DNA of 24,380 bases from a virus (Duplodnaviria; Caudoviricetes). A model generated the notes under the pieces. That model made no database searches. It had not been told where the DNA came from and saw nothing but the letters and a program-made list of their open reading frames with translations. How positions within the stretch are numbered: position 1 is the stretch's first letter; each line of letters starts with the position of its first letter. Of the stretch, positions 1-20,243 are shown in pieces. Both the position numbers and the translations under genes were made by a program. The stretch is taken from positions 1-24,380 of IMG/VR virus record IMGVR_UViG_3300022671_000055; one strand, written 5' to 3'.

Positions 1-2
1 AA

Positions 3-170
3 TTAAAAATAAAACCAGATTTCTTTTTAGAAATCTTGAATTTGAATAATAACATTATAAAATCATTAAGTTTATATAGAAACAAAAAAGCAAAACCAGT
101 AGAAAAAAGACCAAATTCAGTAAAAGCAAATACAAATAATGATATGGGAGAAAGAGGGATAGGATTTTAA
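3..170 (+). CDS. 3' end of an unidentified low-GC ORF (partial, probably not phage-derived)
   Basis: Open frame from the window edge (LKIKPDFF...MGERGIGF*) in very AT-rich sequence. GAGGGAT/ATCCCTC inverted repeat (154-176) overlaps its stop. Confidence 0.35.
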   Translation, partial: LKIKPDFFLEILNLNNNIIKSLSLYRNKKAKPVEKRPNSVKANTNNDMGERGIGF

Positions 171-186
171 TCCCTCATTTAAGTAT

Positions 187-378
187 ATGGAATATAAAAA
201 TTATGAAGTAAAAATAGTAAGAAAAAATATTAAAAACACATATATCAGAGTTAAAACTGACAAAAAAATATCTATTACAACATCTAAATTTACTACACAA
301 AAAGAAATTAACAAAATAGAAGACACCTTTAAAAAAGATACCGAATCCCTCTTCTCAGAAGACGATATTCCGTTCTAA
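187..378 (+). pseudogene. Chimeric ORF: N-terminus of a YgjP/DUF45 (M48-like) metallopeptidase fused to an SSB-type acidic C-terminal tail
   Basis: Residues 1-44 (YEVKIVRKNIKNTYIRVKTDKKISITTSKFTTQKEI) resemble the YgjP N-terminus, but no HExxH follows. The last residues SEDDIPF match the SSB C-terminal tip. Base composition shifts at about 320. Confidence 0.55.
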
Positions 379-392
379 ACACACAAATTTAT

Positions 393-421
393 TTGCAAAT
401 AAAATAAGCGCGTAAAACAAT
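393..421 (+). promoter_or_regulatory. Putative sigma70-type promoter, leaderless, for ORF 428
   Basis: TTGCAA (393-398), 17 nt, AACAAT (416-421), 6 nt, ATG (428). No SD. The perfect palindrome TTTATTTGCAAATAAA (388-403) covers the -35. Confidence 0.5.
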
Positions 422-427
422 AAATAC

Positions 428-625
428 ATGAAACGCGATTACGAACTAGAACTCATACTCGAAAACTTCTGTAGACCAGAAATCCTCTACGACTTTCTAG
501 AAGAACACGGACTCGTCCTTGACGAAATTAACGCCGAAAGACTCATAGGCTTCGTCCTAGAAGAACGAATGTTCTTTAAAAAACGACTCGAAGAAAAAAT
601 ACACGAGCTTCAAACACAAGCATGA
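428..625 (+). CDS. Hypothetical phage protein (65 aa)
   Basis: ATG ORF with phage-like codon usage and a plausible promoter directly upstream. No recognisable motif. Confidence 0.7.
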   Translation: MKRDYELELILENFCRPEILYDFLEEHGLVLDEINAERLIGFVLEERMFFKKRLEEKIHELQTQA

Positions 626-635
626 CTCCCCGCGC

Positions 636-664
636 TTGACACCGATAAACCCACGTTAAATAAT
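636..664 (+). promoter_or_regulatory. Putative sigma70-type promoter, leaderless, for ORF 671
   Basis: Consensus TTGACA (636-641), 17 nt, AATAAT (659-664), 6 nt, ATG (671). Confidence 0.6.
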
Positions 665-670
665 TAAATA

Positions 671-751
671 ATGATGTGGGACGAATTCACTTTGTTAATT
701 GCTTGTATTTCCTGCCTCGTTGCCGGAATCTATTTAGTAACCGCAAAGTGA
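671..751 (+). CDS. Small single-pass membrane peptide (26 aa, MMWDEFTLLIACISCLVAGIYLVTAK); not in ORF track
   Basis: ATG at the predicted +1 of a TTGACA promoter, one hydrophobic helix, and a TGA overlapping the GTG of the next gene (GTGA, 748-751). Confidence 0.6.
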   Translation: MMWDEFTLLIACISCLVAGIYLVTAK

Positions 752-1119
752 ACTTTAACAAACATAAGTACAAAGCAACACGCGTTAACTTCGACGGCTA
801 CTCTTTTGCTTCTAAAGGAGAGGCCGCCTGTTACCAACTCCTAAAAGATAAAGAAAAAAGAGGCGAACTTAAACTCCTAAGAACACAAGTACAAATCTAT
901 CTCACTAAAGCTAAAATCCTCTACAAACCAGACTTCGAATGCCAAGACCCAGATACTAACGAAATCTTTTACGTAGAATACAAAGGCGTCGAAACCCCCA
1001 CATGGAGAATTAAAAGAAAACTATGGATCCACTACGGACCAGGAAGACTCATCATCTACAAAGGGTCATATAAGGGCCGCATCGATATCTTCGAGGAACT
1101 CATTCCTGAAAATGATTAA
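748..1119 (+). CDS. DUF1064-like PD-(D/E)XK endonuclease
   Basis: KYKATRVNFDGYSFASKGEA...YKPDF...YVEYKG motif series typical of phage DUF1064 proteins. Start moved to GTG 748 (track gives 676). Confidence 0.8.
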   Translation: MNFNKHKYKATRVNFDGYSFASKGEAACYQLLKDKEKRGELKLLRTQVQIYLTKAKILYKPDFECQDPDTNEIFYVEYKGVETPTWRIKRKLWIHYGPGRLIIYKGSYKGRIDIFEELIPEND

Positions 1120-1290
1120 TTCAAAACTTTATACTAAAATAATCACAACCACGGTTCCGAAACATCTGATGCCATTCCAGCTTGATAGGATTAAAAAGAG
1201 GGTAACACCCCTTGCCGTGGCCAATTTGTTAGTTTATCTAAACAATATGAAAACAAGCGCAATGATGCGCACTTTCGAAAGCAGGTAATT

Positions 1291-1710
1291 ATGTCAATAA
1301 TGGGGAGACCAAAAAAAGAATTCGATTGGGAACTATTTGATAAACTCTGTAGCTACCCGCCAGTCATCACTCAAGAAGATATAGCAGACGCACTCAAAGT
1401 CTCTGTCGATACCTGCTCCAGACAAATTAGAAAAAAATATGATTGCACATTTGCGCAATATCGCGTCAAAAGAATGGGCAGCATGCGCAGAGCTCTTTTT
1501 TCCTGGCAGTTAAAATCTGCTGAAAAAGGCAACGTCACTATGCAAATATGGCTCGGCAAACAATACCTCAATCAAAAAGAACCTAAGGTAGAACAAGAAG
1601 TTGTCATCAACGATGAAAACGATAAGCTAAAAGTCTACGCAGAAAAGCTTAAGGAAATGGCAACAGATGACGCTGGATCTAAACAGTCTAAGTCCGATTC
1701 AAAAAATTGA
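1291..1710 (+). CDS. terS: Terminase small subunit
   Basis: MGRPKK N-terminus, HTH (TQEDIADALKVSVDT), GNVTMQIWLGKQYLNQ motif. Directly upstream of and overlapping the TerL ATPase gene. Confidence 0.8.
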   Translation: MSIMGRPKKEFDWELFDKLCSYPPVITQEDIADALKVSVDTCSRQIRKKYDCTFAQYRVKRMGSMRRALFSWQLKSAEKGNVTMQIWLGKQYLNQKEPKVEQEVVINDENDKLKVYAEKLKEMATDDAGSKQSKSDSKN

Positions 1711-2353
1711 AGCTTATAAACACGCACTAAGAGATTCGTACAAAGAATCACTTTTTAAAACCGCCAAATACCTCCTAGGCTACAAAGACATAAGAGCAGG
1801 CACACACAAACACATCTGTGAATCACTACAATCAAATACCACTAGAAAACTAATCGTGTGCCCAAGAGGAGCTTTTAAATCCTCCATCGCAGCAGTCGCT
1901 TACCCCATTTGGCTTCTCATTAATAACCCAAACCTTAGAATCCTTCTTGATTCAGAAATCTTCACCAATAGCCGTAACTTCATTAGAGAAATAAAAGGAC
2001 ACCTAGAGTCACCAGACTTCATTGACCTTTTTGGTAACTGGAAAACAAAACACGACTGGACACAAAGCACCCTTTCTGTCGCAGCCCGTAGCATTATTAA
2101 AAAAGAATCATCTATTACCGCAGGTGGTGTCGGCACCGTCAAAACAGGTCAACATTTTGACGTCATCATTGGCGATGACTTAAATAGTCACAAAAATTCA
2201 GCAACGCAAGATGGCAGACAAAAAGTTATTGAACACTATAGGTATTACACCTCATTATTAGATCCGGGTGGCACCATCGTAATTATAGGGACACGCTACG
2301 CCGAAGACGACGTCATCGGTTACATTTTAGAAAATGAGGTAAAACATGAGTGA
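1667..2353 (+). CDS. terL: Terminase large subunit, N-terminal ATPase half (split gene part 1)
   Basis: Walker A region PRGAFKS, AGGVGTVKTGQHFDVIIGDD (Walker B), coupling motif IIGTRYAEDD. Ends with TGA right after motif III, with no nuclease domain. Confidence 0.9.
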   Translation: MTLDLNSLSPIQKIEAYKHALRDSYKESLFKTAKYLLGYKDIRAGTHKHICESLQSNTTRKLIVCPRGAFKSSIAAVAYPIWLLINNPNLRILLDSEIFTNSRNFIREIKGHLESPDFIDLFGNWKTKHDWTQSTLSVAARSIIKKESSITAGGVGTVKTGQHFDVIIGDDLNSHKNSATQDGRQKVIEHYRYYTSLLDPGGTIVIIGTRYAEDDVIGYILENEVKHE

Positions 2354-3152
2354 ACAAAAACACGTGGTAGGCGAGCTTAAAAACTTTAACACGGCAAAAG
2401 AACATTTAAAAAAATGGGTAAGCTTTCTAGTAGAAGCAGATGAGGCAAATGCAGCCCTGGACGCTTTAAAAGCACTACCTGGGTTTTATCGTGAACACCT
2501 CCCCGTTGATCTATTACAGCTTAGAAGAACGATTCTTAAGCAGTTTATGACGCAAAAAGATTATATAGAAAACGACATTGAAACTGAACTTATGGGCGAA
2601 GAGCGGGCAAAAGAAATTGTTAAAATTACTCACCGGGCACAAGCAGTTTTAAAAAAGATCAAAGAATATAACGACCGCGGCCTTAAACCTCACCTTGTAG
2701 ATCTAGGTCCTGGAGAATACTGGCTACCGATGGGTTTAAAGGCCGAAGGGTGCAACTTTACCTATCAAGGCATCGGACTTCAAAACAAAGCAGAATCCCA
2801 AGCAAAAGCAATTTTAAAAGATATTTTGTTTAATTTAAAACACCCTATTCAAAGACCCGTTATCTTTTGTGCGATGGAAATTATAGAGCACCTCTGGAAT
2901 CCATACGAAGTAGAAATGCACTTGGCAAAGCTTCCCCAATTACCTGATTACATGTTCATTTCTACGCCTCTTTATACCTTTGGAACCGGTAACGATACTT
3001 GGACCAAACCTGAAGACTTTGGTAAACTAGGACATATTAAAACATACACTCCAACTGATTTGGTGCAGTATTGTTTAAAAAGCTTTCCTGATTACGCTTG
3101 GGAAATTAAATTACATGTTTGCATGCTGGCTGAAGGGAGTCTAAAGCAATGA
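2346..3152 (+). CDS. Class I SAM-dependent methyltransferase-like protein
   Basis: Motif I LVDLGPGE, then IFCAMEIIEHLWNP, FISTP and GHIKTYT, the pattern of small-molecule/sugar methyltransferases. No DNA-MTase DPPY/NPPY/PCQ motif. 8-nt overlap with the terL-N stop. Confidence 0.75.
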   Translation: MSEQKHVVGELKNFNTAKEHLKKWVSFLVEADEANAALDALKALPGFYREHLPVDLLQLRRTILKQFMTQKDYIENDIETELMGEERAKEIVKITHRAQAVLKKIKEYNDRGLKPHLVDLGPGEYWLPMGLKAEGCNFTYQGIGLQNKAESQAKAILKDILFNLKHPIQRPVIFCAMEIIEHLWNPYEVEMHLAKLPQLPDYMFISTPLYTFGTGNDTWTKPEDFGKLGHIKTYTPTDLVQYCLKSFPDYAWEIKLHVCMLAEGSLKQ

Positions 3153-3445
3153 GTTCAAATTCTAACCGTCAAGGTATTGGCTTACAAAACACGAGAGTGG
3201 TTGTTGGAACTTCTCAAATAATTGGAGCAACCGCAGTATCCGGTCAAATTTCCGTACAAATTAGAAAAGCATCGGGCGGAAGTTTGTTAGTTGGCGGACC
3301 CGAAATGGACTATACCGACGGTTTAAGAGTTCCAAATTTAGATGCTCAGGTTTTAGAAATTAAAACTGCTGGCAATGTTTACTTTAGAGCACAAGGTAGT
3401 ACTGCCACAATAGACGTACTACACTTAACAACTATTGCTGAGTAA
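3149..3445 (+). CDS. Small beta-rich protein (paralogue A), probably virion-associated
   Basis: 98 aa, ATGA overlap with the upstream gene. Aligns by eye with the next ORF. Confidence 0.7.
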   Translation: MSSNSNRQGIGLQNTRVVVGTSQIIGATAVSGQISVQIRKASGGSLLVGGPEMDYTDGLRVPNLDAQVLEIKTAGNVYFRAQGSTATIDVLHLTTIAE

Positions 3446-3447
3446 TT

Positions 3448-3741
3448 ATGTCAGACCGTAGAGATGTTCACGGGTTAGAGGGTTTTCGTTTTCATGTCGG
3501 ACTTTCTGCTCCCGTAGGCATTACTGTGCAAGCAGGTCAAATTGTTACAGCCTTTAAATACTTCAGTGGTGGCACACTTGAGATTGTATCTGGACAAACA
3601 ACCTCTCCCTGGGGGTTAGGTTACGTGTTTTCTGTGGGCGAAGCATTAGAGATTGATTCTTCAACTACAACGTATTTTGCTGCAACCGGTGCGACTGTCA
3701 CAGTTATGGCACTTAGAGGAAAGTCTGCGGGGTCACCTTAA
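3448..3741 (+). CDS. Small beta-rich protein (paralogue B), probably virion-associated
   Basis: 97 aa. Shares GL..R..VG.S...G.T...GQI...SGG.L...LEI...YF.A.G.T.T with 3149-3445. Confidence 0.7.
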   Translation: MSDRRDVHGLEGFRFHVGLSAPVGITVQAGQIVTAFKYFSGGTLEIVSGQTTSPWGLGYVFSVGEALEIDSSTTTYFAATGATVTVMALRGKSAGSP

Positions 3742-5465
3742 TGCCTAGAATAAGAGTCACGACTCCTCAAACCGCCGATGTAAATTCGTTTTCTATTATT
3801 CAACCAGATTTTGGTACAAGTCCTACAGCGGATTCTCCAAACGACACACTCAATCTTACAAGCACAGATAATTCAATCACTATTACCGGTGATTCAACTA
3901 CTGATACAATCAACTTCTCTACAAGCGCTACAGGTGGATCTATGGCAATAAATGACGCGGTATATGCTAACCAGGACCCTTTTGATAAAACAATTTCAAT
4001 TGGCGGGCTTTATGATGAAACGGCAACAATCATTACTGCAGAAGATGGGATCAGTCCTTTTCGGATTACTGAAAGCTTAGCGCTTCACATAAACATAAGA
4101 GACGAATCAGGTGTTGAGTTAGGTTCAACTTTAAACCCATTGTACGTGCAAGGTAATTTCGGTGGTTCAACTGTAAGTATTGCCGGCGGATCAGTAAATG
4201 CTCTTATAGGCGGCACGGCTTCCATTGCTGGCGGGAGTTTAAATATTACCGGTGACGTGACCATTGGATCGACCGTCTTTGCCGACATAGGATCTTCAAT
4301 TAATGCGCTTGTTGGTGGGACCGTAACAATTGGACAAACACTAAGCAGTGTTATCGGAGGTAGCGTTTTTGTTTCTGGAGGAAGCTTAAACATCACGGGC
4401 GATGTTACGGTAGGATCTACAATCTTTGCCGACATTGGTTCTTCTATAAACGCATTAGTCGGTGGAACCGTTACCATTGGTCAAACCTTAAATAGTCAAA
4501 TAGGCGGATCTGTTTTTATCTCTGGAGGATCTTTAAATATAACAGGCGATGTCACCGTAGGATCTACAATATTTGCTGACATTGGATCATCTATCAATGC
4601 CCTTGTAGGAGGCACTGTTAGCGTCTCTGGGGGCTCTTTAAACATTACTGGAAGTGTTGATATAGGTTCGACCGTTTTTGCTGATATTGGATCGAGCATC
4701 AATGCGTCAGTTGGCGGTACTGTAACGTTAGGTTCTACAGTGTTTTCAGATATTGGATCTTCCATTAACGCTTTAGTGGGCGGAACTGTAGCGATAGGCG
4801 ACACAATCTTTGCGGACATTGGATCTAGTATTAACGCTTTAATTGGTGGAACGGTTTCAATAGGCGACACTATTTTTGCTGAGATAGGATCAAGTATTAA
4901 TGCGCTCATAGGTGGAACAGTTTCAATTGGATCTTCTGTTCAAGGTAGATTTACTGAATATGGTACAGGCGGAAGGCCAAATCTTTACAATAACGTATTA
5001 AACCTTTTTGATATCCCTACTATGGCGTTAGGTGACCCCGCTTTGGGTGCGCTTGCAAACGTCCAGGCTGGAAGCTTAAACACACGAGATATTACAAGAA
5101 CAAGCGGAGACATTTCTCTAGGTGGACTTGTAACAACGTTTAATAACTCTACAACGACAGCGCTTGTCCCATTTAGTGTTACTGGATACAGGAATGGATC
5201 TTTTCAAACCATAATGGGATCTAGTGGAACTCCTACAGATGTTCAGTTTTTCTTACTGCAAAGGGCGGGTGCTACTTATACACAAGTGACCAGTGGAAAA
5301 TGGGCTAGGCTTAAAATGGTTGATACAAACACCAATCCACCTAAATCTGAAAGTTTAGAGTTTAATTGTGTAGGTCAAACAATGGCGATCAGAATTGACG
5401 CAACAGGCACAGACGCTACAAACACGTTTAACTCTCTTTTAGCCCAAGTGCATTTAAGAACTTAG
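3741..5465 (+). CDS. Gly/Ser/Thr-rich beta-repeat protein, putative fibre/spike
   Basis: 574 aa. N-terminal TADSPNDTLNLTSTDNSITITGDSTTDTINF resembles phage fibre anchor segments. Central repeats and a globular C-terminal domain. Confidence 0.65.
   Translation: MPRIRVTTPQTADVNSFSIIQPDFGTSPTADSPNDTLNLTSTDNSITITGDSTTDTINFSTSATGGSMAINDAVYANQDPFDKTISIGGLYDETATIITAEDGISPFRITESLALHINIRDESGVELGSTLNPLYVQGNFGGSTVSIAGGSVNALIGGTASIAGGSLNITGDVTIGSTVFADIGSSINALVGGTVTIGQTLSSVIGGSVFVSGGSLNITGDVTVGSTIFADIGSSINALVGGTVTIGQTLNSQIGGSVFISGGSLNITGDVTVGSTIFADIGSSINALVGGTVSVSGGSLNITGSVDIGSTVFADIGSSINASVGGTVTLGSTVFSDIGSSINALVGGTVAIGDTIFADIGSSINALIGGTVSIGDTIFAEIGSSINALIGGTVSIGSSVQGRFTEYGTGGRPNLYNNVLNLFDIPTMALGDPALGALANVQAGSLNTRDITRTSGDISLGGLVTTFNNSTTTALVPFSVTGYRNGSFQTIMGSSGTPTDVQFFLLQRAGATYTQVTSGKWARLKMVDTNTNPPKSESLEFNCVGQTMAIRIDATGTDATNTFNSLLAQVHLRT
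4161..4928 (+). repeat. Intragenic tandem repeats: 7 x 22-aa unit G[SD]T[VI]F[AS][DE]IGSSINA[LS][VI]GGTV.[IVL], partly nested in a 49-aa (147-nt) higher-order unit
   Basis: Counted from the translation. GGSLNITG units start near 4230, 4377, 4524 and 4629. Confidence 0.9.
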
Positions 5466-5468
5466 TTT

Positions 5469-6230
5469 ATGGCAAATAGGTTTGCAATTTACGACATATC
5501 TACAAAACCTTTTACGCAATACGCGGTATTAAGCATAAATCAAGGCTCTGGTTCTTCAGGAGGGATTTATTTTGACGGCAGGCATTTTTGGTATGGTGAA
5601 GATAAAATGCTTTATTGCTTACAGCTTGAAGGAAATACGTTTACAGCCTTAGATTCTGTAGATTTATCAAGCATTTATAGTGGTACTACTGGAGTTCGTG
5701 GTATTATGGGATATGGTAGAGATTTACTTCTTGCTGTAAGAGTAAGTGCTGCAATTGCTTCCAGATATATTATTGTAAGTCCTACTGATTTGACTCTTTT
5801 AGAAGACTTAACTGTTTCTGGATTTCCTGCCGGTACATCACAAACAAGTGATATTACAATGTTTGATAATATTATTGTTCATTGTACTGAGGGTACCCCA
5901 TTTCAAAATGCGCAGTACAGGTATACAGATATTTCAGATTTGCAACAGTTGTTTCAGACAACACAACCTTTTATTCGAAGGCTTCAAGCGATATGCTATG
6001 CTGGAAGGGATTTAGTTAGAATTGGTGTTGGGAATAACAATGCCCAACAAATAATAGATTTAGATTTTGTTATACAAGACGTTTTAGGGGGGACTACTTT
6101 AACAAATACGCAAAATTGTTGTTACATTGGAGAAGGTCATTTGCATGAGTATTTTGGTAAAGTTGTTTCTGGAAATGGTGAGCAAGTAAACGATAGTTAT
6201 GGCAAATTTATAGGGGTAATAAGGCAATAA
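5469..6230 (+). CDS. Putative beta-propeller protein (possible receptor-binding tip)
   Basis: Roughly 45-aa recurrences GIYFDGRHFW / GIMGYGRDLL / DITMFDNIIV / AICYAGRDLV suggest propeller blades. Confidence 0.5.
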   Translation: MANRFAIYDISTKPFTQYAVLSINQGSGSSGGIYFDGRHFWYGEDKMLYCLQLEGNTFTALDSVDLSSIYSGTTGVRGIMGYGRDLLLAVRVSAAIASRYIIVSPTDLTLLEDLTVSGFPAGTSQTSDITMFDNIIVHCTEGTPFQNAQYRYTDISDLQQLFQTTQPFIRRLQAICYAGRDLVRIGVGNNNAQQIIDLDFVIQDVLGGTTLTNTQNCCYIGEGHLHEYFGKVVSGNGEQVNDSYGKFIGVIRQ

Positions 6231-6231
6231 G

Positions 6232-6579
6232 ATGATTAAAGAAAAACGAACTGTAAAAATTAAAGTGAGTGCCTCGGATTTAACAACGACCCTGCTATCG
6301 CAAGCAGATCCGATGGTGAATGCTTCGGAGATAGACGAATTTGAACTCGATTCTTCTGATACCTCTTTTGTTTCTATTAAAACAGTAGAGTCCGATTTAA
6401 CTGAATATAAAGAACAGAGGCATTTTAGTTTTTCCAAGCAAGAGTTAGTTGATGAGCTTTTAATAGATAAATATCCACAAGTAGAAACATCTGAAATCGA
6501 TACAATTTTAAAAGAGTCTGCTGGAAACTTTTTAGTAATTTTAAAACAAAAGCTTTTTGCTGAATATCAAGGAGTATAG
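6232..6579 (+). CDS. Hypothetical protein (115 aa, acidic)
   Basis: Tightly packed ATG ORF in the operon. No motif recognised. Confidence 0.7.
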   Translation: MIKEKRTVKIKVSASDLTTTLLSQADPMVNASEIDEFELDSSDTSFVSIKTVESDLTEYKEQRHFSFSKQELVDELLIDKYPQVETSEIDTILKESAGNFLVILKQKLFAEYQGV

Positions 6580-6582
6580 GCC

Positions 6583-6777
6583 ATGGCGTTTACACAAGAA
6601 ATTAATCAAAAAATTAATCAGCTGCAAAAGAAAAAGAAGCAAAGAAAAGCATTAAAAGCTCAGTTTGATGTTTTAAAATCTAAGTCAGACGAAATTAAAG
6701 ATCAGTTTAATATAATAAAAGCTGAAGAAGACGCTTTAGAAGTAGAGATTGAAACTTTAATTAAAGCGCTTCCATAA
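6583..6777 (+). CDS. Small coiled-coil protein (64 aa)
   Basis: AGGAG SD upstream. Heptad-like K/E/Q-rich helix. Confidence 0.7.
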   Translation: MAFTQEINQKINQLQKKKKQRKALKAQFDVLKSKSDEIKDQFNIIKAEEDALEVEIETLIKALP

Positions 6778-6790
6778 ATAAAAAGGTCAA

Positions 6791-7192
6791 ATGATAACCG
6801 TTGTGGCTTTTACAAAGAACAATGCAAAAGTATTAAAGATGTCTTCTAAACAAGACCTAAAACTTTTGAGTGTGCCATTTGTATTAAATCCTTCACTTGA
6901 AGAGGTCCGAGGAATTCCGCCACATTTTTGGAAGATTAAAAATAATCAGATAGTACCAATGAATGAAGTCGAGCAATTACAGCGTGCTCGATCAATAGCA
7001 AAAGAAGGAATTGATAATAACGTTTACTTGAGCAAGAAAAAGATTAACCACTGTCATAGATTTTTAAAGATTTTAAATTTTGTTTTAAACTCAATGATTG
7101 TTTTAGCTGCCATTGTAGTTGTCTTTGCGGCTGTAAAGTATTTAGCTCCAGAGATTCAAGAGTTTTTATCTGTATGGACAAATGGTCGGTAG
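6791..7192 (+). CDS. Hypothetical protein with C-terminal transmembrane helix
   Basis: Hydrophobic stretch ILNFVLNSMIVLAAIVVVFAAV. The PPHFWKIKNNQIVPM segment is reminiscent of tail-fibre assembly proteins. Overlaps the terL-C start by 19 nt. Confidence 0.65.
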   Translation: MITVVAFTKNNAKVLKMSSKQDLKLLSVPFVLNPSLEEVRGIPPHFWKIKNNQIVPMNEVEQLQRARSIAKEGIDNNVYLSKKKINHCHRFLKILNFVLNSMIVLAAIVVVFAAVKYLAPEIQEFLSVWTNGR

Positions 7193-7998
7193 TTTACGAA
7201 AAAGCGATTCGTGATGACGGGTCTCTTTTTTTTCCTGAACGTTTAACCAAAGAGTTTTTAGATCAAGCAAAAAGAGTCATGGGCTCTTACATGTTTGCTA
7301 ACCAGTATCAAAACGAGATTATTCCTCAGGGTGAGCAAACGTTTAAAAAAGAGTGGATTAGGTATTACAAAGCAAAGCCTGAATTAAAAACAACGTTTGC
7401 CATGATTGATCCAGCTATTTCGCAGCAAGATAACGCAGACTTTACTGCCCTTGTGGTGGTCGATTGTGATGTTGATGGCAATTGGTATGTCAGATCTGCG
7501 ATGAGGTATAAAATTACTCCAACGCAGATTGTAAACTTGTGTTTTAAGGTATGGGAAAAGTTTAAGCCTCAAGCAATAGGCATTGAGGATGTAGCTTATC
7601 AAAAGGCGCTTTTGTATATGCTGGATGAAGAGATGAAGCGGCGCAACGCCGTGTTACCTGTTACGGGGGTAAAGCCTGACAGTGATAAGTCAAAAGAGAT
7701 TAGAATTTTGGGATTAGTGCCAAGGTTTGAGTGGGGAAGAATTTTGCTTGCTCAAGGGCTTCATGATTTAGAGCTTGAGCTTGCACAATTTCCGAGATCA
7801 AAGAATGATGATTTATTAGACGCGCTTGCATACATTGAACGCATTGCGTTTTATCCGCAAAAAGAGAGGAGCACAAATGAGCCGCCAAACCCAAACGACC
7901 CAGCAAACTACGAAAGATGGTACCGACAAAACATCTCCAAAATCCGAGAAGGCAGAATCAATCCTTTTGGACGAGCAGGAGAGTTCGGAAATTATTGA
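7174..7998 (+). CDS. terL: Terminase large subunit, C-terminal lid + RNase H-fold nuclease half (split gene part 2)
   Basis: WSVVYEKAI..DGSLFFPE...MGSYMFANQYQNE linker/lid, then IDPA...DFTALVV, IGIED and FPRSKNDDLLDALAY nuclease motifs with acidic residues intact. Confidence 0.9.
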   Translation: MDKWSVVYEKAIRDDGSLFFPERLTKEFLDQAKRVMGSYMFANQYQNEIIPQGEQTFKKEWIRYYKAKPELKTTFAMIDPAISQQDNADFTALVVVDCDVDGNWYVRSAMRYKITPTQIVNLCFKVWEKFKPQAIGIEDVAYQKALLYMLDEEMKRRNAVLPVTGVKPDSDKSKEIRILGLVPRFEWGRILLAQGLHDLELELAQFPRSKNDDLLDALAYIERIAFYPQKERSTNEPPNPNDPANYERWYRQNISKIREGRINPFGRAGEFGNY

Positions 7999-8254
7999 TA
8001 TTGATGACACTAAAGAAACCGTGCAAACTTTTTTAGATAAGATCGCATTTGCAAAAGCAAACGGGGAGAGTGCCATTGAAACGACGGACGAAATCTTTAA
8101 ACATTATTTTCCGCGAGGTTATGACAAAGACTACTTCCACTTCCAAGGTATTGAAGTGGTTCGAAAAGGAAAGCTTGAAAAAGTGGAAGCTGAAAAGGAG
8201 AGACAGACGAATCAGCGGTTACACCCCAACGATGGAGCGTTTGTCAACCGATGA
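7877..8254 (+). CDS. Hypothetical protein overlapping the terL-C 3' end
   Basis: Strong SD GAGAGGAG (7864-7871) before ATG 7877 (track start 7826). ATGA overlap with the next gene. Confidence 0.7.
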   Translation: MSRQTQTTQQTTKDGTDKTSPKSEKAESILLDEQESSEIIDIDDTKETVQTFLDKIAFAKANGESAIETTDEIFKHYFPRGYDKDYFHFQGIEVVRKGKLEKVEAEKERQTNQRLHPNDGAFVNR

Positions 8255-8463
8255 GTGTTCTTGAAGCCTTTTTAGTAGCTCTATTAGTTGCAGAACAAGC
8301 CATATCGTTTTACTTTATTAATAAGCTTGTAAATAAAATCATGTCTCGTAACTATGCGGAATATGAGCAAGCGCAAATTAAGCCTGAAAGGCAAAGGTTT
8401 AGGGTTCCATTGGAAGATGAGCCCGAGGACTTAAGAAATATTGAGTCACCTTATGTAGGATAG
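8251..8463 (+). CDS. Small membrane-anchored protein (70 aa)
   Basis: N-terminal hydrophobic helix followed by LVNKIMSRNYAEY. Immediately before the portal gene. Confidence 0.7.
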   Translation: MSVLEAFLVALLVAEQAISFYFINKLVNKIMSRNYAEYEQAQIKPERQRFRVPLEDEPEDLRNIESPYVG

Positions 8464-8465
8464 CT

Positions 8466-10478
8466 ATGGCTTTTTCTGACATCTTTACAAAACAACAAGA
8501 GCCGGGAACTACATCTGAAGACAAGAAAATGTCTGGATGGATTAAGTCCAAAGTAGAGGAAGTTAGAAAACAAGGCGCCAGAGTGTCTAACGAAGGCATT
8601 TGGATGACTAATATCGCCTACTTGGTTGGATATGATAACGTATTTTATGACACAGCTACCCGCCAGTTTCGAGTTAATAACCGTGCTAATCGTCCTCTTA
8701 GTCGTAACCGCTTACATGTAAACCGGATATTGCCGACAATACAAAACAGGCTTTCAAGACTTACTAAAAACCGTCCACAATACACAGTGCGTCCTAACTC
8801 TATGGAGCAGGACGACAAAGAGGCGGCGACTTTAGCTGAGCAAGTTTTAAATTGGCATTGGCAAGAACAGCAGATGTCAGACAAACAGATTGAGCTTTAC
8901 ATGTGGTTGCAGCAATGTGGCCATGCTTATTTAAAAGTTAACTGGGATACTCAGTTAGGCGAAATGATCGAAGATCCTGCAACCGGGGAAGCGGAATATG
9001 AAGGTGAAGTAAGGGTAGATGTTGTTTCACCTTTTGAAGTGTTTCCTGATCCTTTGGCGAAAAATTTAAGAGATGCGCAGTGGTTAATACAAGCAAAAGT
9101 TAGAAAGCTTGATTATTTCAAATCTCATTATGAAAATGGCAATTTAGTGAAGGCTGAAGATACTTGGTTATTATCGGCTCAATATGAAGAGCGAATTAAT
9201 TCGATGAACACTCAAGGTGCTTTGGGTGGATCTCGAAGAACCAATGATCAAGACACTGCAATTGAGCTTATTTATTATGAGCGTAGATCTAAAAAGCATC
9301 CAAATGGACGAATGGTAATTTGTGCCAATGGAGTTTTATTAGAGGATAAGGAATTGCCGGTAGGTGAGATTCCGTTTGTAAAGTTTGATGATATTGTTAT
9401 TGCGGGTAAATATTATTCTGAGGCTGTAATTACGCATCTTCGTCCAATACAAGATCAGTATAACAGGACTATTTCTAAGCGTGCTGAATGGACAAATAAG
9501 ATGTTAACTGGAAAGTATTTAACTGCACGTGGTTCCCAATTAGTAGCGGAAGCTTTAAATGATCAAAGTGGTGAGGTAGTAGAGTTTACTCCTGTACCGA
9601 ATGCACCTCCTCCTACTGCAATGGCAACTCCTACTATTCCTTCTTATGCTTACAAAGAAGAAGAGCAGTTAAAGCAACAATTTGATGAAGTGTCAGGTAT
9701 TAATGAAGTTTCTCGTGGTCAAGCACCTGGAGGTGGGATTACAGCTGCAATTGCGCTTCAATATTTGAGTGAGCAAGACGATACTCGTATTGGTATTATG
9801 TCTCGTAAAAACGAGCTAGCGTATGCCAGGGTGGGCGCTTTAATTTTAAAGTATGTGCACGAGTTTTATAAAAACCCAAGGCTTTTAAAGATAGCGGGTC
9901 AGAACCGCGATTATATGGTCAAAGAGTTTGTGGGGGCTGACATTCGGGGGAATACTGATGTTCAGGTTGTTGAGGGATCGACACTTCCTAGTAGTGAAAC
10001 TGCCAAGCGAGATTTCATCCTCACACTTCGCAGGGAAGGTCTACTTGGAAGCCCACAGGACCCTAAGGCAAATGAGCGAGTATTAGAGTTATTACAGTTT
10101 GGTGATGTTGATGGACTTTGGGACGATTACTCAATTGATATGAATCAGATTCAAGAATCTATTCAAATGATTGAGAACGAGCAAATTCCTGAAATATCTG
10201 AGCTTGATAACAATCAAATGCACATACAGGTAAAGAATCGTTATCGTAAAACTGACAAGTTTAAAAAGTTAACGCCAATATCTCAGCAAATACTTTTAGA
10301 TGATATTAATCAGCGTATTGATCTTTTGGTAAACCAAGCAAACCCTGGACTAGCTGAGGAGCCAGCGCCTGCTGGTCCTATGCCGTTAGCTGAGGGTGCG
10401 CCTTTGCCGGGAGCTGGGGAGTTATTGGATCGAGAAGAACAATTAACTGAAGATTTAGCAAACATGGAAGGAATTTAA
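8466..10478 (+). CDS. Portal protein (P22-like size and layout)
   Basis: 670 aa after terminase. LHVNRILPTI..., VDVVSPFEVFPDP, LRPIQDQYN and VSGINEVSRG motifs are typical of podovirus portals. Confidence 0.88.
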   Translation: MAFSDIFTKQQEPGTTSEDKKMSGWIKSKVEEVRKQGARVSNEGIWMTNIAYLVGYDNVFYDTATRQFRVNNRANRPLSRNRLHVNRILPTIQNRLSRLTKNRPQYTVRPNSMEQDDKEAATLAEQVLNWHWQEQQMSDKQIELYMWLQQCGHAYLKVNWDTQLGEMIEDPATGEAEYEGEVRVDVVSPFEVFPDPLAKNLRDAQWLIQAKVRKLDYFKSHYENGNLVKAEDTWLLSAQYEERINSMNTQGALGGSRRTNDQDTAIELIYYERRSKKHPNGRMVICANGVLLEDKELPVGEIPFVKFDDIVIAGKYYSEAVITHLRPIQDQYNRTISKRAEWTNKMLTGKYLTARGSQLVAEALNDQSGEVVEFTPVPNAPPPTAMATPTIPSYAYKEEEQLKQQFDEVSGINEVSRGQAPGGGITAAIALQYLSEQDDTRIGIMSRKNELAYARVGALILKYVHEFYKNPRLLKIAGQNRDYMVKEFVGADIRGNTDVQVVEGSTLPSSETAKRDFILTLRREGLLGSPQDPKANERVLELLQFGDVDGLWDDYSIDMNQIQESIQMIENEQIPEISELDNNQMHIQVKNRYRKTDKFKKLTPISQQILLDDINQRIDLLVNQANPGLAEEPAPAGPMPLAEGAPLPGAGELLDREEQLTEDLANMEGI

Positions 10479-18026: not shown

Positions 18027-20243
18027 ATGACACGCCCAAGCATTAGCCTAGCAATGATTGTTAAGAATGAAGCGCACAATCTTCCAGCGCTTTTTAAGTC
18101 AATTGAAAATTGTTTTGACGAAATTCACATTACGGATACAGGTTCAACGGATGAGACGGTTGATATCGCAAAGCAGATGGGAGCCCGTGTTCATTATTTT
18201 GAGTGGGTTAATGATTTTGCTGCTGCTAGAAATGCTAGCTTAGAGCCTATAAAAACTGATTATGTGATGTGGTTAGACGGTGATGATGTTTTGTCTGACA
18301 AAGACGCATTTATCCGTTGGCGTGACTATGCGATGACGCAATCAGATTTTTGGTTAGCGACTTATCATTATGCTTTTCATAAAAACGGGGTACCTAGTTG
18401 TTCATTTGTAAGAGAGCGGGTATTTCGAGCAAATATTGGTTTAAAGTTTAAATATTTTGTGCATGAGGGTGTACCACCTATTCGTCCTGACGGAAGGCGT
18501 GTTGAGGTTAATACGTGTACAACCTGGACGATTAATCACATGCGATCAGACGATGATATCAAGGCTGATAAGGCTCGTAACTTAAAGTTGTTTGAGGGGC
18601 GTGATGATATTGATGCTCGAATGCAATATTATTGGGGGAAAGAGTTATTTGAAAATAACGAGCCTAAAAAAGCGATAGAAAAGTTTAAGGTTGCGCTTGC
18701 GGATTCTAAGCTTGAATTGCACGACAAGATACTTGCTATTCAGTACATGTGTTTATCTTTAATGCGTGTGGGTGTTGAAGAAAAGAAGGTTGAAGTTTTT
18801 CCAAAGGTTATAGAGTTTGCGCAGCAGGGGTTGATGTTAGCGCCTCATCGGGCTGAGTTTTATACGTTTATAGGCGATTCATACATAAAGATGAATCGTT
18901 TACATGAGGCAATTCCATCGTTTTCGGCGGCTAAGGCGTGTCGATTTACCTCTCTGTCGGAGACTGGGATTGCCTCGCCCATATTTAGTTATGAAGATTG
19001 TTATGGTGCTTATCCTAGAAAAATGCTTGCCAAGCTTTATGCAAAAGAAGGCAATTTAGATCTTGCTCATCAAAACGTAAATGAGGTGCTTTCTGTAAGT
19101 CCTGATCATGAGGAAGCAAAGCTTATAAAAAGCGAGCTTGAAAAACTTGAGGTTAAGGTAGCTAAGAAAACAAAAACTCAACTTGAGGATGCAATTGTTT
19201 TTACGACTCCTGAGATGAATCTTTATCAGTGGGACTGGGAGACCTACAAGAAAAAGGGAATTGGCGGCAGTGAGACTGCGTGTGTTGAGATAGCTTATTG
19301 GTTAAAGCGTTTGACTAATAAAAGGGTTATTGTTTTTAACACTAGAGAAAAAGAAGATGTACAAGAAGGTGTTGAGTATTTTCCTTTAAATAGGGTTCAT
19401 GAGTATTTTGAAAAGTACGAGCCTAGTTTGCACATAGCTTGGAGGCATCCGATAGATTTAACAAAAGCTCCTACTTATGTTTGGTCGCATGATTTAGTGG
19501 TGCCTCAAATTGAAAACAGGAATCATTATGAAAAGGTTCTTTGTTTATCACCGTTTCATAGAAATTATTTGAATGCGTATCGTGGTGTAAGTTTAGATAA
19601 GATTATGCTTACTAAAAACGGTATTGATCCTAATCGTTTTAGTGGTGTTTTAGAGGTTGATAAAGATCCGAACAAGGTTGTTTTTTCTAGTTCTCCTGAT
19701 CGTGGTTTAGACCGTTGTATACGCGTGATGGATGAGGTGCGGAAAGAAAATCCTAAGGCTTATCTTTGTGTTTATTATGGATTTGAGAACATGGAAAAGA
19801 TGGGCATGAAGGATGAGGTTTTGCGTTTTAGAAAGCTTTGTGAGGAAAGGCCTTATGTGCGTTTAATTGGGAATGTAAACCAAAGGACGCTTACTCAAGA
19901 GTTTGCTTCAGCAGGTGTTTGGCTTTATCCGACACATTTTATGGAAACGTTTTGCATTACGGCATTAGAGGCGGTTTTGTGTCGCACCTATCCAATTGTA
20001 CGTAAATTTGGTGCCCTCCCTGACACTCTGGCATTTACGCAAGGCGACAATAAAATGGCAACTATTATTGATTCACCTTGTGAGAATGAGGAGCATTATA
20101 AGCTTTATGCGCGTGCTGTCTTAGATGCACAAAGGGATAAGTTATGGGAAAATATGGATGCAAAGCCTGAAGATTTTTCTTGGGAGAATGTGGCAAAACA
20201 ATGGCTTACGGATATGAAATTCAGATCGTCGGAGACGCACTAA
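18027..20243 (+). CDS. Bifunctional glycosyltransferase: GT2 (GT-A) - TPR - GT4-like (GT-B) fusion
   Basis: GT2 motifs SLAMIVKNE, DTGSTD, DFAAARN, WLDGDD, VHE. Helical TPR-like middle. GT-B motifs GIGGSETA, SSSPDRGL, ETFCITALEA. SD AAGGAGG. Confidence 0.88.
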   Translation: MTRPSISLAMIVKNEAHNLPALFKSIENCFDEIHITDTGSTDETVDIAKQMGARVHYFEWVNDFAAARNASLEPIKTDYVMWLDGDDVLSDKDAFIRWRDYAMTQSDFWLATYHYAFHKNGVPSCSFVRERVFRANIGLKFKYFVHEGVPPIRPDGRRVEVNTCTTWTINHMRSDDDIKADKARNLKLFEGRDDIDARMQYYWGKELFENNEPKKAIEKFKVALADSKLELHDKILAIQYMCLSLMRVGVEEKKVEVFPKVIEFAQQGLMLAPHRAEFYTFIGDSYIKMNRLHEAIPSFSAAKACRFTSLSETGIASPIFSYEDCYGAYPRKMLAKLYAKEGNLDLAHQNVNEVLSVSPDHEEAKLIKSELEKLEVKVAKKTKTQLEDAIVFTTPEMNLYQWDWETYKKKGIGGSETACVEIAYWLKRLTNKRVIVFNTREKEDVQEGVEYFPLNRVHEYFEKYEPSLHIAWRHPIDLTKAPTYVWSHDLVVPQIENRNHYEKVLCLSPFHRNYLNAYRGVSLDKIMLTKNGIDPNRFSGVLEVDKDPNKVVFSSSPDRGLDRCIRVMDEVRKENPKAYLCVYYGFENMEKMGMKDEVLRFRKLCEERPYVRLIGNVNQRTLTQEFASAGVWLYPTHFMETFCITALEAVLCRTYPIVRKFGALPDTLAFTQGDNKMATIIDSPCENEEHYKLYARAVLDAQRDKLWENMDAKPEDFSWENVAKQWLTDMKFRSSETH

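Follow-up and report, generated by a model that had tools for sequence, protein, structure and literature searches.

Organization of the terminase locus

The window analyzed here, 24,380 nt of a tailed-phage record (IMG/VR IMGVR_UViG_3300022671_000055), carries its large terminase gene (terL) as two intact, collinear open reading frames on the plus strand, which we call chain 1 and chain 2. Eight closely packed genes fill the 4,820 nt that separate them, and no intergenic space from 1291 to 7998 exceeds 13 nt. The features of the region are:

636..664, plus strand: promoter-like site (11 of 12 consensus positions), upstream of the all-plus-strand block
1291..1710, plus: probable small terminase, 139 aa, directly 5' of TerL with a 44-nt overlap; weak HTH match below the Pfam cutoff
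1667..2353, plus: TerL chain 1, 228 aa; ATPase core (Walker A through motif III plus the next helix), without the last strand and lid (phrog_38, partial NF033889, motifs, mapping via the one-chain relative L109)
2346..3152, plus: class I SAM-dependent methyltransferase-like gene, 268 aa (Atlas feature score 0.96; structural TM about 0.6 to methyltransferases; no Pfam match)
3149..3445, plus: small all-beta protein, copy 1, 98 aa (clustering, alignment)
3448..3741, plus: 97-aa second copy of the small all-beta protein; its model (pLDDT 85.5) has eight strands and predicts a jelly-roll
3741..5465, plus: Gly/Ser/Thr-rich repeat protein, 574 aa, probably fibre-like; seven repeats spaced 66-147 nt at 4256-4930; a singleton family, confined to this locus among 53
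5469..6777, plus: three uncharacterised genes (253, 115 and 64 aa), each confined to this locus among 53
6791..7192, plus: 133-aa gene with a hydrophobic C-terminal stretch; 19-nt overlap with chain 2; family in 11 of 53 gaps
7174..7998, plus: TerL chain 2, 274 aa; last ATPase strand and lid at residues 4-51, with the remainder an RNase H-like nuclease (phrog_38, PF17289)
8466..10478, plus: portal protein (PF16510 P22_portal, E 5e-29; phrog_156)

A sequence-only reading had described terL as two intact genes 4.8 kb apart, overlapping their neighbors by 8 nt and 19 nt, with the Walker motifs on the first and an intact nuclease on the second, and each of these points holds. In chain 1, PRGAFKS (at residue 66), IIGDD (167) and GTR (208), which we take to be Walker A, Walker B and motif III, are invariant in 120 homologs. 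Chain 2 carries IDPA (78), GIED (136) and NDDLLD (211), and its acidic residues D79, E138, D213 and D216 are invariant in 72 sequences. The TerL profile phrog_38 (E 3e-39) is covered by chain 1 at positions 290-465 and by chain 2 at 466-718, with nothing missing or duplicated, so the halves abut as had been proposed. PF17289, the RNase H-like nuclease, matches chain 2 at residues 78-220 above its cutoff, while chain 1 has no Pfam match. Neither half reaches the NF033889 cutoff of 150 (96.5 and 28.1), and the one-chain relative also falls below it (70.7). Each half alone is shorter than the standard full-length TerL marker, and the two activities otherwise found on one TerL polypeptide lie on two ORFs, the first with its stop and the second with a separate start. 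The pair occupies a head-packaging module, with the portal gene at 8466, scaffold-like and major head genes downstream, and the probable small terminase upstream.

Judged from sequence, the promoter-like site at 636..664 could place both terL halves on one transcript; such sites are not enriched (17 found, 19.7 expected in shuffles). The jelly-roll protein at 3448..3741 has weak cupin-fold matches (best E 4e-4), and its nearest named Atlas clusters, DUF7243 (0.84) and the PRD1 P5 spike N domain (0.82), both lie below 0.9; as a lead only, the model suggests that it is possibly a virion spike or fibre base. By clustering, this family occurs in 41 of 53 gaps and the methyltransferase-like family in 15 of 53. 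Two of the 53 gaps hold no ORF of at least 45 aa and 12 lack a jelly-roll family member; among 68 gap proteins scanned in relatives there is one HNH protein, and the gaps have no endonuclease in common. The first ~330 nt of the contig have 15-30% GC, against about 40% elsewhere, and because of this shift in composition the left end of the assembly may be chimeric.

The split marks a whole clade

The divided gene is not a one-off. Both TerL parts are present at 102 non-redundant loci: the 53 closest, the window included, are split at the same loop, and the 49 more distant encode one chain. In a further 85 loci, which include some duplicates, 26 are split. The sequence-only reading had asked whether related contigs share the split, and 52 other non-redundant loci are indeed cut alike, with differing gaps. 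These gaps range from -1 to 8,689 nt and fall in all three frames, with zero length in 1 of the 51 measured; in one relative (L038) the terL genes abut (TAATG), leaving 59 nt between conserved codons, and in another that distance between conserved codons is 138 nt. With profiles built from clade members, and with 5'-truncated ORFs left aside for chain 1, every split locus outscores every one-chain locus (chain 1, at least 257 against at most 229 bits; chain 2, at least 321 against at most 242). All of the best 120 near-length homologs of chain 1 are 213-266 aa long without a chain-2 match. Among 120 longer matches listed, the 12 best are chain 1 with an intein, still ending at the cut, and the other 108 are distant one-chain proteins. 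The chain-1 tails after GTR are 18-54 aa long and unconserved.

The split forms make up a single clade in trees of either half (IQ-TREE support 100/99 and 100/98, 48 rows including 14 of the nearest one-chain proteins). In FastTree trees of 91 rows, one branch parts split from one-chain forms (1.0/0.955/1.0). Both halves are under purifying selection, with pN of 0.02-0.30 against pS of 0.52-0.92 in 12 of 12 pairs. Distances in the two halves are only moderately correlated (r 0.45-0.53, against 0.82 for halves of the portal), a point against docked chains, although their scatter is not above that of one-chain proteins (sd 0.054 against 0.063). One pair suggested that halves are freely swapped among phages, with identities of 85% for chain 1, 97% for chain 2 and 98-99% for the portal, and with DNA identity rising from 0.74 to about 0.9 across the gap; the idea was dropped, since the one-chain control is equally scattered.

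Among cultured phages in the GenBank set there was no clade-level match, the listed matches having at most 35% identity. A GTDB scan gave two clade-level matches, on short contigs (5.6 and 16.5 kb) of metagenome bins labelled Gammaproteobacteria and Nitrosotalea, labels that differ too much to be trusted for a host. The contig, at 24.4 kb, is shorter than related contigs reaching 35-41 kb, so that a further terL is possible in the missing part of this genome.

The cut lies inside the ATPase domain

To place the cut structurally we used the one-chain relative, in which it corresponds to loop 221-224. Solved ATPase domains align onto this relative at residues 22-272 (4znl; Z 19.1, rmsd 2.8, 218 aligned) and 6-274 (2o0j; Z 19.6, rmsd 3.9, 238 aligned). 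Both span the loop, and the cut is therefore inside the ATPase domain, leaving about 50 ATPase residues, the last beta-strand and the lid, on the nuclease chain. The break had been expected to precede the segment that completes the lid, and the mapping places it there, some 50 residues short of where the ATPase domain ends. The description of the products as separate ATPase and nuclease polypeptides stands in that two chains are separately translated; the labels are wrong, because chain 2 bears the last ATPase strand and the lid.

Reassembly by fragment complementation, also proposed from the sequence, remains the likeliest mechanism. The predicted complex of chain 1 with chain 2 scored 0.88 and the best of three controls 0.01; of 157 solved complexes 116 reach the mark used, and of 215 mismatched pairs 2 do. 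The score may reflect memory of one-chain terminase structures, so that it shows likeness and not binding. The runs had at least 96% contact agreement and a partner pLDDT of at least 79. In the prediction, residues 4-9 of chain 2 form an edge beta-strand on the Walker A strand of chain 1 (60-64), and the lid (43-52) rests against P66, R67 and R210. Of 72 split sequences, 97% have Trp4 and 90% have Tyr8 in the docking strand; the corresponding residues of 108 one-chain proteins are mostly Phe and Lys/Ile. In the lid, the motif Q44-Y45-N47, conserved at 99-100%, is predicted to contact the Walker A arginine. The chain-1 side of the predicted interface is no better conserved than the remainder of chain 1 (0.72 and 0.72), which counts against docking, and a search of solved structures with the chain-2 profile gave no terminase among its matches.

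Could the two chains instead work largely apart? Chain 1 would then form a ring in which the small terminase or the jelly-roll protein fills the missing part, and chain 2 would be recruited for cutting only, at free stoichiometry, which comes closest to the earlier proposal that the ATPase:nuclease ratio is uncoupled. In the model the donated strand contacts one strand of chain 1 only, as an edge strand, so chain 1 may fold alone; a jelly-roll protein is available in most gaps; and the ATPase domain is reported to be the main DNA grip in P74-26 (PMC5389665). The near-invariant lid motif on chain 2, however, is predicted to contact the Walker A arginine, lid residues of P74-26 are described as important for ATP hydrolysis and ring contacts, and the active isolated P74-26 ATPase construct (1-256) contains the lid (PMC5389665). 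A jelly-roll filler would also be missing wherever the gap lacks this family. Every complete ATPase site would have to borrow its last strand and lid from one copy of chain 2, which makes uncoupled stoichiometry unlikely, and we consider this arrangement as a whole unlikely.

The junction carries a start codon and no splicing signals

Chain 2 has a start codon no more than 3 codons from its invariant Trp at 35 of 51 loci, against 14% by chance, and within 12 codons at 49 of 51. No junction bases are conserved beyond coding (50-51 loci), Rfam gave no match over positions 1-9000 at E<=1, none of the eight intervening ORFs matches an intein or endonuclease in Pfam or PHROG, and none of the repeats shown (20 direct families, 25 inverted pairs) forms a pair flanking both junctions. 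The sequence GAG/GTAAAA near the end of chain 1 was considered as a splice donor and ruled out, as it is not conserved in relatives. These results bear out the earlier statement that intein termini, homing endonuclease and ribozyme space are all lacking.

They also make it very unlikely that the halves are exons, joined into one chain at the RNA stage (in trans, or through a group I or II intron that has genes nested in it), by ribosomal bypass or by programmed excision of DNA. Such joining would fit halves that abut exactly, genes that all lie on a single strand, and chain-1 tails as unconserved as intron sequence would be, and self-splicing introns in phage terL have been described and tested (PMC11878797). 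Against it stand the lack of an Rfam match, of non-coding room and of conserved or repeated junction sequence, gaps that fall in every frame, the 59 nt of L038, which are too short for a ribozyme, and the enrichment of a start codon of its own ahead of the invariant Trp.

Misassembly, or decay of a broken gene in a dead prophage, is less credible again. The composition shift at the left end is compatible with a chimera there, but independent contigs from many assemblies share the cut with different gaps, which excludes misassembly as the cause of the split, and intact motifs under strong purifying selection argue against decay. Protein trans-splicing by a split intein is a negligible prospect: a fractured terminase with a split intein has been described, its published kind having halves mostly of 88-105 and 33-54 residues (PMC2677866), and whole inteins invade chain 1 in 12 clade proteins, yet these occupy two positions away from the cut, within the ATPase core, and the facing ends here (chain 1 continues for 13 residues after its last conserved Asp, D215, chain 2 has 3 ahead of its invariant Trp, and there is no HN[CST] end) are too short, which refutes it barring an unknown ligation.

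Comparison with known systems

The fold and motif order are those of one-chain T7-type TerL (PhiV-1 TerL, PDB 8dgc chain E; T7 gp19 model 4bij; NCBIfam NF033889), which is encoded by one gene rather than two. Structure 8dgc is the best match both to the one-chain relative (Foldseek E 4e-26; VIA Z 26.2, rmsd 10.9, 428 aligned) and to the chain-1 profile (E 3e-7). The exons of herpesvirus UL15, with other DNA between them, are spliced to give one chain; the analogy drawn to it from the sequence is weak, because nothing here points to splicing. In Bastillevirinae, terL is likewise interrupted, by group I introns, and is reported to be spliced to one chain (PMC11878797), whereas this locus has no ribozyme, non-coding room or splice motif.

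A large terminase in two ORFs is already published for cluster AY Arthrobacter phages (PMC11920828, PMC12820723). There, TerL is annotated as two genes in most of the cluster, with no splicing mentioned. The BillyTP genes 2 and 3, however, are consecutive (359 and 198 aa, with a 17-nt overlap), whereas the halves in our clade are up to 8.7 kb apart; the AY TerL belongs to a different family (PF20441), and its cut appears from sequence to follow the lid, at the ATPase/nuclease boundary. Among the papers searched, judged by titles and abstract openings, none treats this clade, this cut site or such gene separation.

Aeh1 nrdA, an essential enzyme cut by inserted DNA and reported to be rebuilt non-covalently without splicing (PMC3045599), is a precedent for such 'genes in pieces'. 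Its pieces are described as flanking the homing endonuclease mobE and as depending on new tails; here no such gene lies in the window, the tails vary, and the predicted docking element is the enzyme's own strand. Non-covalent assembly is here a prediction, with the caveat on memory of one-chain structures. The split-intein fractured genes, one of them a terminase in two pieces with DNA between, are reported to carry intein halves and a free endonuclease gene (PMC2677866), neither of which occurs here.

Discussion

Throughout this clade terL is cut inside its ATPase domain, and the two separately made chains likely dock to restore the enzyme, with neither RNA nor protein being spliced. The best reading is an ancient fission rescued by chain complementation. 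The chains probably pair 1:1: neither alone would package DNA, and the pair would be the working unit, assembling on the portal into the customary ring. Tolerance of the cut would have left the interval between the two genes free to take up changing accessory genes. In other motors, force is believed to pass through the covalent bond that joins the lid to the ATPase core (PMC5389665); here a docked strand would have to bear it, which counts against this explanation.

There is a small chance that the fission is itself a working feature. Docking of the lid-plus-nuclease chain would then complete the ATP site and gate the motor, release or exchange of chain 2 would switch between pumping and cutting, and unpaired chains might evade host sensors, Avs3 for example, that hold both terminase domains simultaneously. 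EcAvs2 is reported to respond to ATPase domains alone (PMC13601566), which counts against a general escape from sensors.

Fission with docking has consequences for how phages are found and how packaging motors are understood. Phages are routinely detected and classified with TerL as a marker; here neither half is full length and chain 1 escapes Pfam. In models of packaging motors, the lid is the lever by which ATP hydrolysis moves DNA, and what keeps the nuclease off while the motor pumps is under debate (PMC5389665, PMC7617512, PMC3074133). A split system would be a reagent in which ATPase, lid and nuclease could be mixed, titrated and swapped, and a widespread natural motor with its lid and nuclease on a second chain would be a direct test of whether the lid must be covalently linked to the ATPase core.

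Results

TerL is encoded by two separate genes

The plus strand of the 24,380-nt phage contig carries genes for a P22-like portal, a major head protein, an adaptor and the tail. As the sequence-only reading had proposed, TerL is present as two genes, whose ORFs match consecutive stretches of one TerL profile:

TerL genes of the window
1667-2353, plus strand, TerL chain 1, 228 aa, phrog_38 positions 290-465
7174-7998, plus strand, TerL chain 2, 274 aa, phrog_38 positions 466-718

The ORFs lie 4,820 nt apart (∼4.8 kb had been claimed), with eight genes between them and a longest spacer of at most 13 nt; the 8-nt and 19-nt overlaps with neighbours reported earlier are both in the sequence. Chain 1 has its Walker A, Walker B and motif III sequences at residues 66, 167 and 208, and the acidic nuclease motifs of chain 2 are at residues 78, 136 and 211. 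No further TerL sequence was found in the contig, whose genome is probably incomplete, since related contigs reach up to 35-41 kb.

In a conserved gene after chain 2 (7826-8254), the open frame shares up to 170 nt with the end of chain 2, and similar overlaps occur in four related loci (L001-L004). At the left end, GC is 15-30% over the first ∼330 nt (∼40% elsewhere), and in region 1-378 an ORF (187-378) combines an AT-rich start without family match and an acidic, SSB-like DDIPF tail; this end of the contig may be chimeric or may mark an integration junction.

The cut falls within the ATPase domain

In the model of L109, a one-chain relative of 466 aa (pLDDT 94.3), the cut maps to a loop (221-224) that connects helix 213-220 to strand 225-229. 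The ATPase domains of P74-26 (4znl; residues 22-272, Z 19.1, rmsd 2.8, 218 aligned) and T4 (2o0j; residues 6-274, Z 19.6, rmsd 3.9, 238 aligned) superimpose on this model, and solved nuclease domains begin at ∼272-276. Because the ATPase domains thus extend to ∼272-274, where the nuclease starts, chain-2 residues 4-51 belong to the ATPase domain, as its last strand and the lid.

Co-folding of the halves, a check suggested earlier, produced a predicted docked complex with a score of 0.88 (best of 3 controls, 0.01). Of 157 solved complexes, 116 attain this mark, as do 2 of 215 mismatched pairs. Runs share at least 96% of contacts, and partner pLDDT is at least 79. In the predicted complex, chain-1 residues 60-64 pair with chain-2 residues 4-9, and chain-2 residues 43-52 touch P66, R67 and R210 of chain 1. 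Halves of a split gene can pass because the predictor has learned one-chain structures, so the complex shows a possible geometry, not binding. The interface side of chain 2 is more conserved than its remainder (0.73 vs 0.61, p 0.013), with no difference for chain 1 (0.72 vs 0.72). In split forms Trp4 (97%) and Tyr8 (90%) prevail where 108 mutually related one-chain proteins mostly have Phe and Lys/Ile, a possible compensation for the lost covalent link.

We consider it likely that the chains, made separately, perhaps off one transcript, would pair through β-strand addition into a normal TerL subunit. A loose coupling of the two chains has a small but appreciable chance of being correct.

The junctions give no sign of rejoining

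Joining of the halves at the RNA or DNA level is improbable: Rfam gave no match in window positions 1-9000, and no junction bases were conserved beyond codons at either junction (50-51 loci). The start codon lies within 3 codons of an invariant Trp in 35 of 51 loci (14% expected) and within 12 codons in 49, and often overlaps the upstream stop. In one relative (L038, 9300-10780) the two genes abut as TAATG, unfused, with 59 nt between conserved codons; its nesting among relatives that carry inserts suggests that the gap can empty without re-fusion.

The split is widespread and of single origin

Four scans of viral contigs gave 157 loci (two alignment scans contributing the best 80 of 133 and the best 80 of 82), from which, with the window, we obtained 102 non-redundant loci with both TerL parts. 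This search for the same split in related phages, also suggested earlier, found 53 split and 49 one-chain loci, with differing gaps: from -1 to 8,689 nt (median 1,955; all three frames; 51 of 53 measurable) within the 10-kb flank examined per locus, beyond which longer gaps escape detection. With profiles built from clade members, split and one-chain sets do not overlap, either for chain 1 (at least 257 vs at most 229 bits, 5'-truncated ORFs aside) or for chain 2 (at least 321 vs at most 242 bits). GTDB and metagenomes yielded 85 more loci (best 80 of 340; duplicates of the viral set retained): 26 split, 34 in which a stop closely precedes chain 2 and chain 1 is out of view, 15 one-chain (none above 248 bits) and 10 truncated. 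Among proteins in the database, the best 120 of 1,274 near-length chain-1 matches measure 213-266 aa, none with a chain-2 match; among 120 of 282 longer matches listed (7,991 candidates scored), the top 12 are chain 1 plus intein, ending at the cut, and the other 108, every one of which includes chain 2, are distant, with identities no higher than 45%. The split is a trait of a clade; it is real, ancient and widespread, and the chance that it is an artefact is very slight.

In twelve stand-alone chain-1 proteins (P0121-P0132), LAGLIDADG inteins occupy two positions, one within Walker A and one immediately ahead of Walker B, and one chain 2 (L076:1655-3397) has an in-frame insert of ∼310 aa. 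Joining via a split intein is the remotest reading, since the facing ends of the ORFs have no room for intein halves.

In FastTree trees of 91 rows (11 of the 102 loci left out as truncated or insert-bearing), all 49 split forms lie on one side of a single branch (support 1.0 for chain 1, 0.955 for chain 2, 1.0 for both); IQ-TREE, run with 25 split loci, 9 one-chain loci and 14 of the nearest one-chain proteins (48 rows), supports this branch at 100/99 and 100/98 in the trees of the two parts. These trees point to a single origin, and because diverse one-chain forms lie all around the split branch, fission appears to be the derived state. In all 12 pairs, each of the two parts shows purifying selection (pN 0.02-0.30; pS 0.52-0.92, mostly saturated).

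The same relative (L011) is closest to the window for both chains. Distances in the two chains correlate moderately (0.49; permutation maximum 0.23), the TerL-part correlation is 0.45 vs 0.82 for portal halves, and the FastTree trees of the two chains contain 12 conflicting pairs of supported clades. Reassortment of the halves is not established, because the same regions of one-chain proteins scatter at least as much. In one pair of loci (L048/L049; ∼7300-9900 of L048), DNA identity is 0.74 in chain 1 and ∼0.9 in chain 2 and portal, and their gap is a possible recombination point.

Gap contents vary

The 53 gaps hold 234 ORFs in 131 families, 114 of them confined to one locus; two gaps lack any ORF of at least 45 aa. 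A 100-aa family occurs in 41 gaps, with two copies in the window, a spread that suggests a first or early insert; its product is a predicted jelly-roll and, as a lead only, a spike or fibre base. Methyltransferase-like, 130-aa and GT2 glycosyltransferase families occupy 15, 11 and 9 of the 53 gaps. Because only one HNH endonuclease was found among 68 scanned gap proteins (two individual proteins and, of the 73 family representatives sized 90-900 aa, 66), the present-day gap appears unexplained by any mobile element. A 574-aa fibre-like gene of the window contains seven diverged tandem repeats (4256-4930; 66-147 nt spacing). The structural block includes a 738-aa GT2-TPR-GT1 glycosyltransferase (18027-20243), common to relatives, which together with the gap methyltransferase and GT2 genes hints at virion glycosylation.

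Discussion

A split TerL as such is already in print: most cluster AY phages carry ATPase and nuclease domains on two consecutive genes (PMC11920828, PMC12820723). Also described are a fractured terminase gene whose pieces carry a split intein (PMC2677866), an intron-split terL (PMC11878797) and non-covalent rescue of the split enzyme Aeh1 nrdA (PMC3045599). The present clade belongs to none of these, and in its working it is most like Aeh1 nrdA. We found no published account of this cut site or clade in a search confined largely to openly available papers. GenBank podovirus MW202554.1 (L163:2914-5451) has terL in two CDS, one of 551 aa that bears an intein-like insert and one of 229 aa, separated by a 62-aa gene; its cut follows the lid, which marks a separate fission. 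Two half-length "terminase large subunit" families, phrog_4758 (243 positions) and phrog_5573 (250), end and start near the present cut and score below phrog_38 on the window ORFs. Together with MW202554.1, they argue that TerL fission arose more than once.

In P74-26, residues of the lid are important for hydrolysis and for contacts within the ring, and the lid is part of the ATPase construct that is active (PMC5389665). The arginine of Walker A toggles towards the lid (PMC7617512), and T4 subdomain II acts as a transmission (PMC3074133). With the lid on chain 2, every ATP site would thus need one chain 2, so a 1:1 ratio is more likely than the uncoupled ATPase:nuclease stoichiometry that the sequence-only reading had envisaged. 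The split opens the function of the covalent ATPase-lid link in TerL to direct testing.
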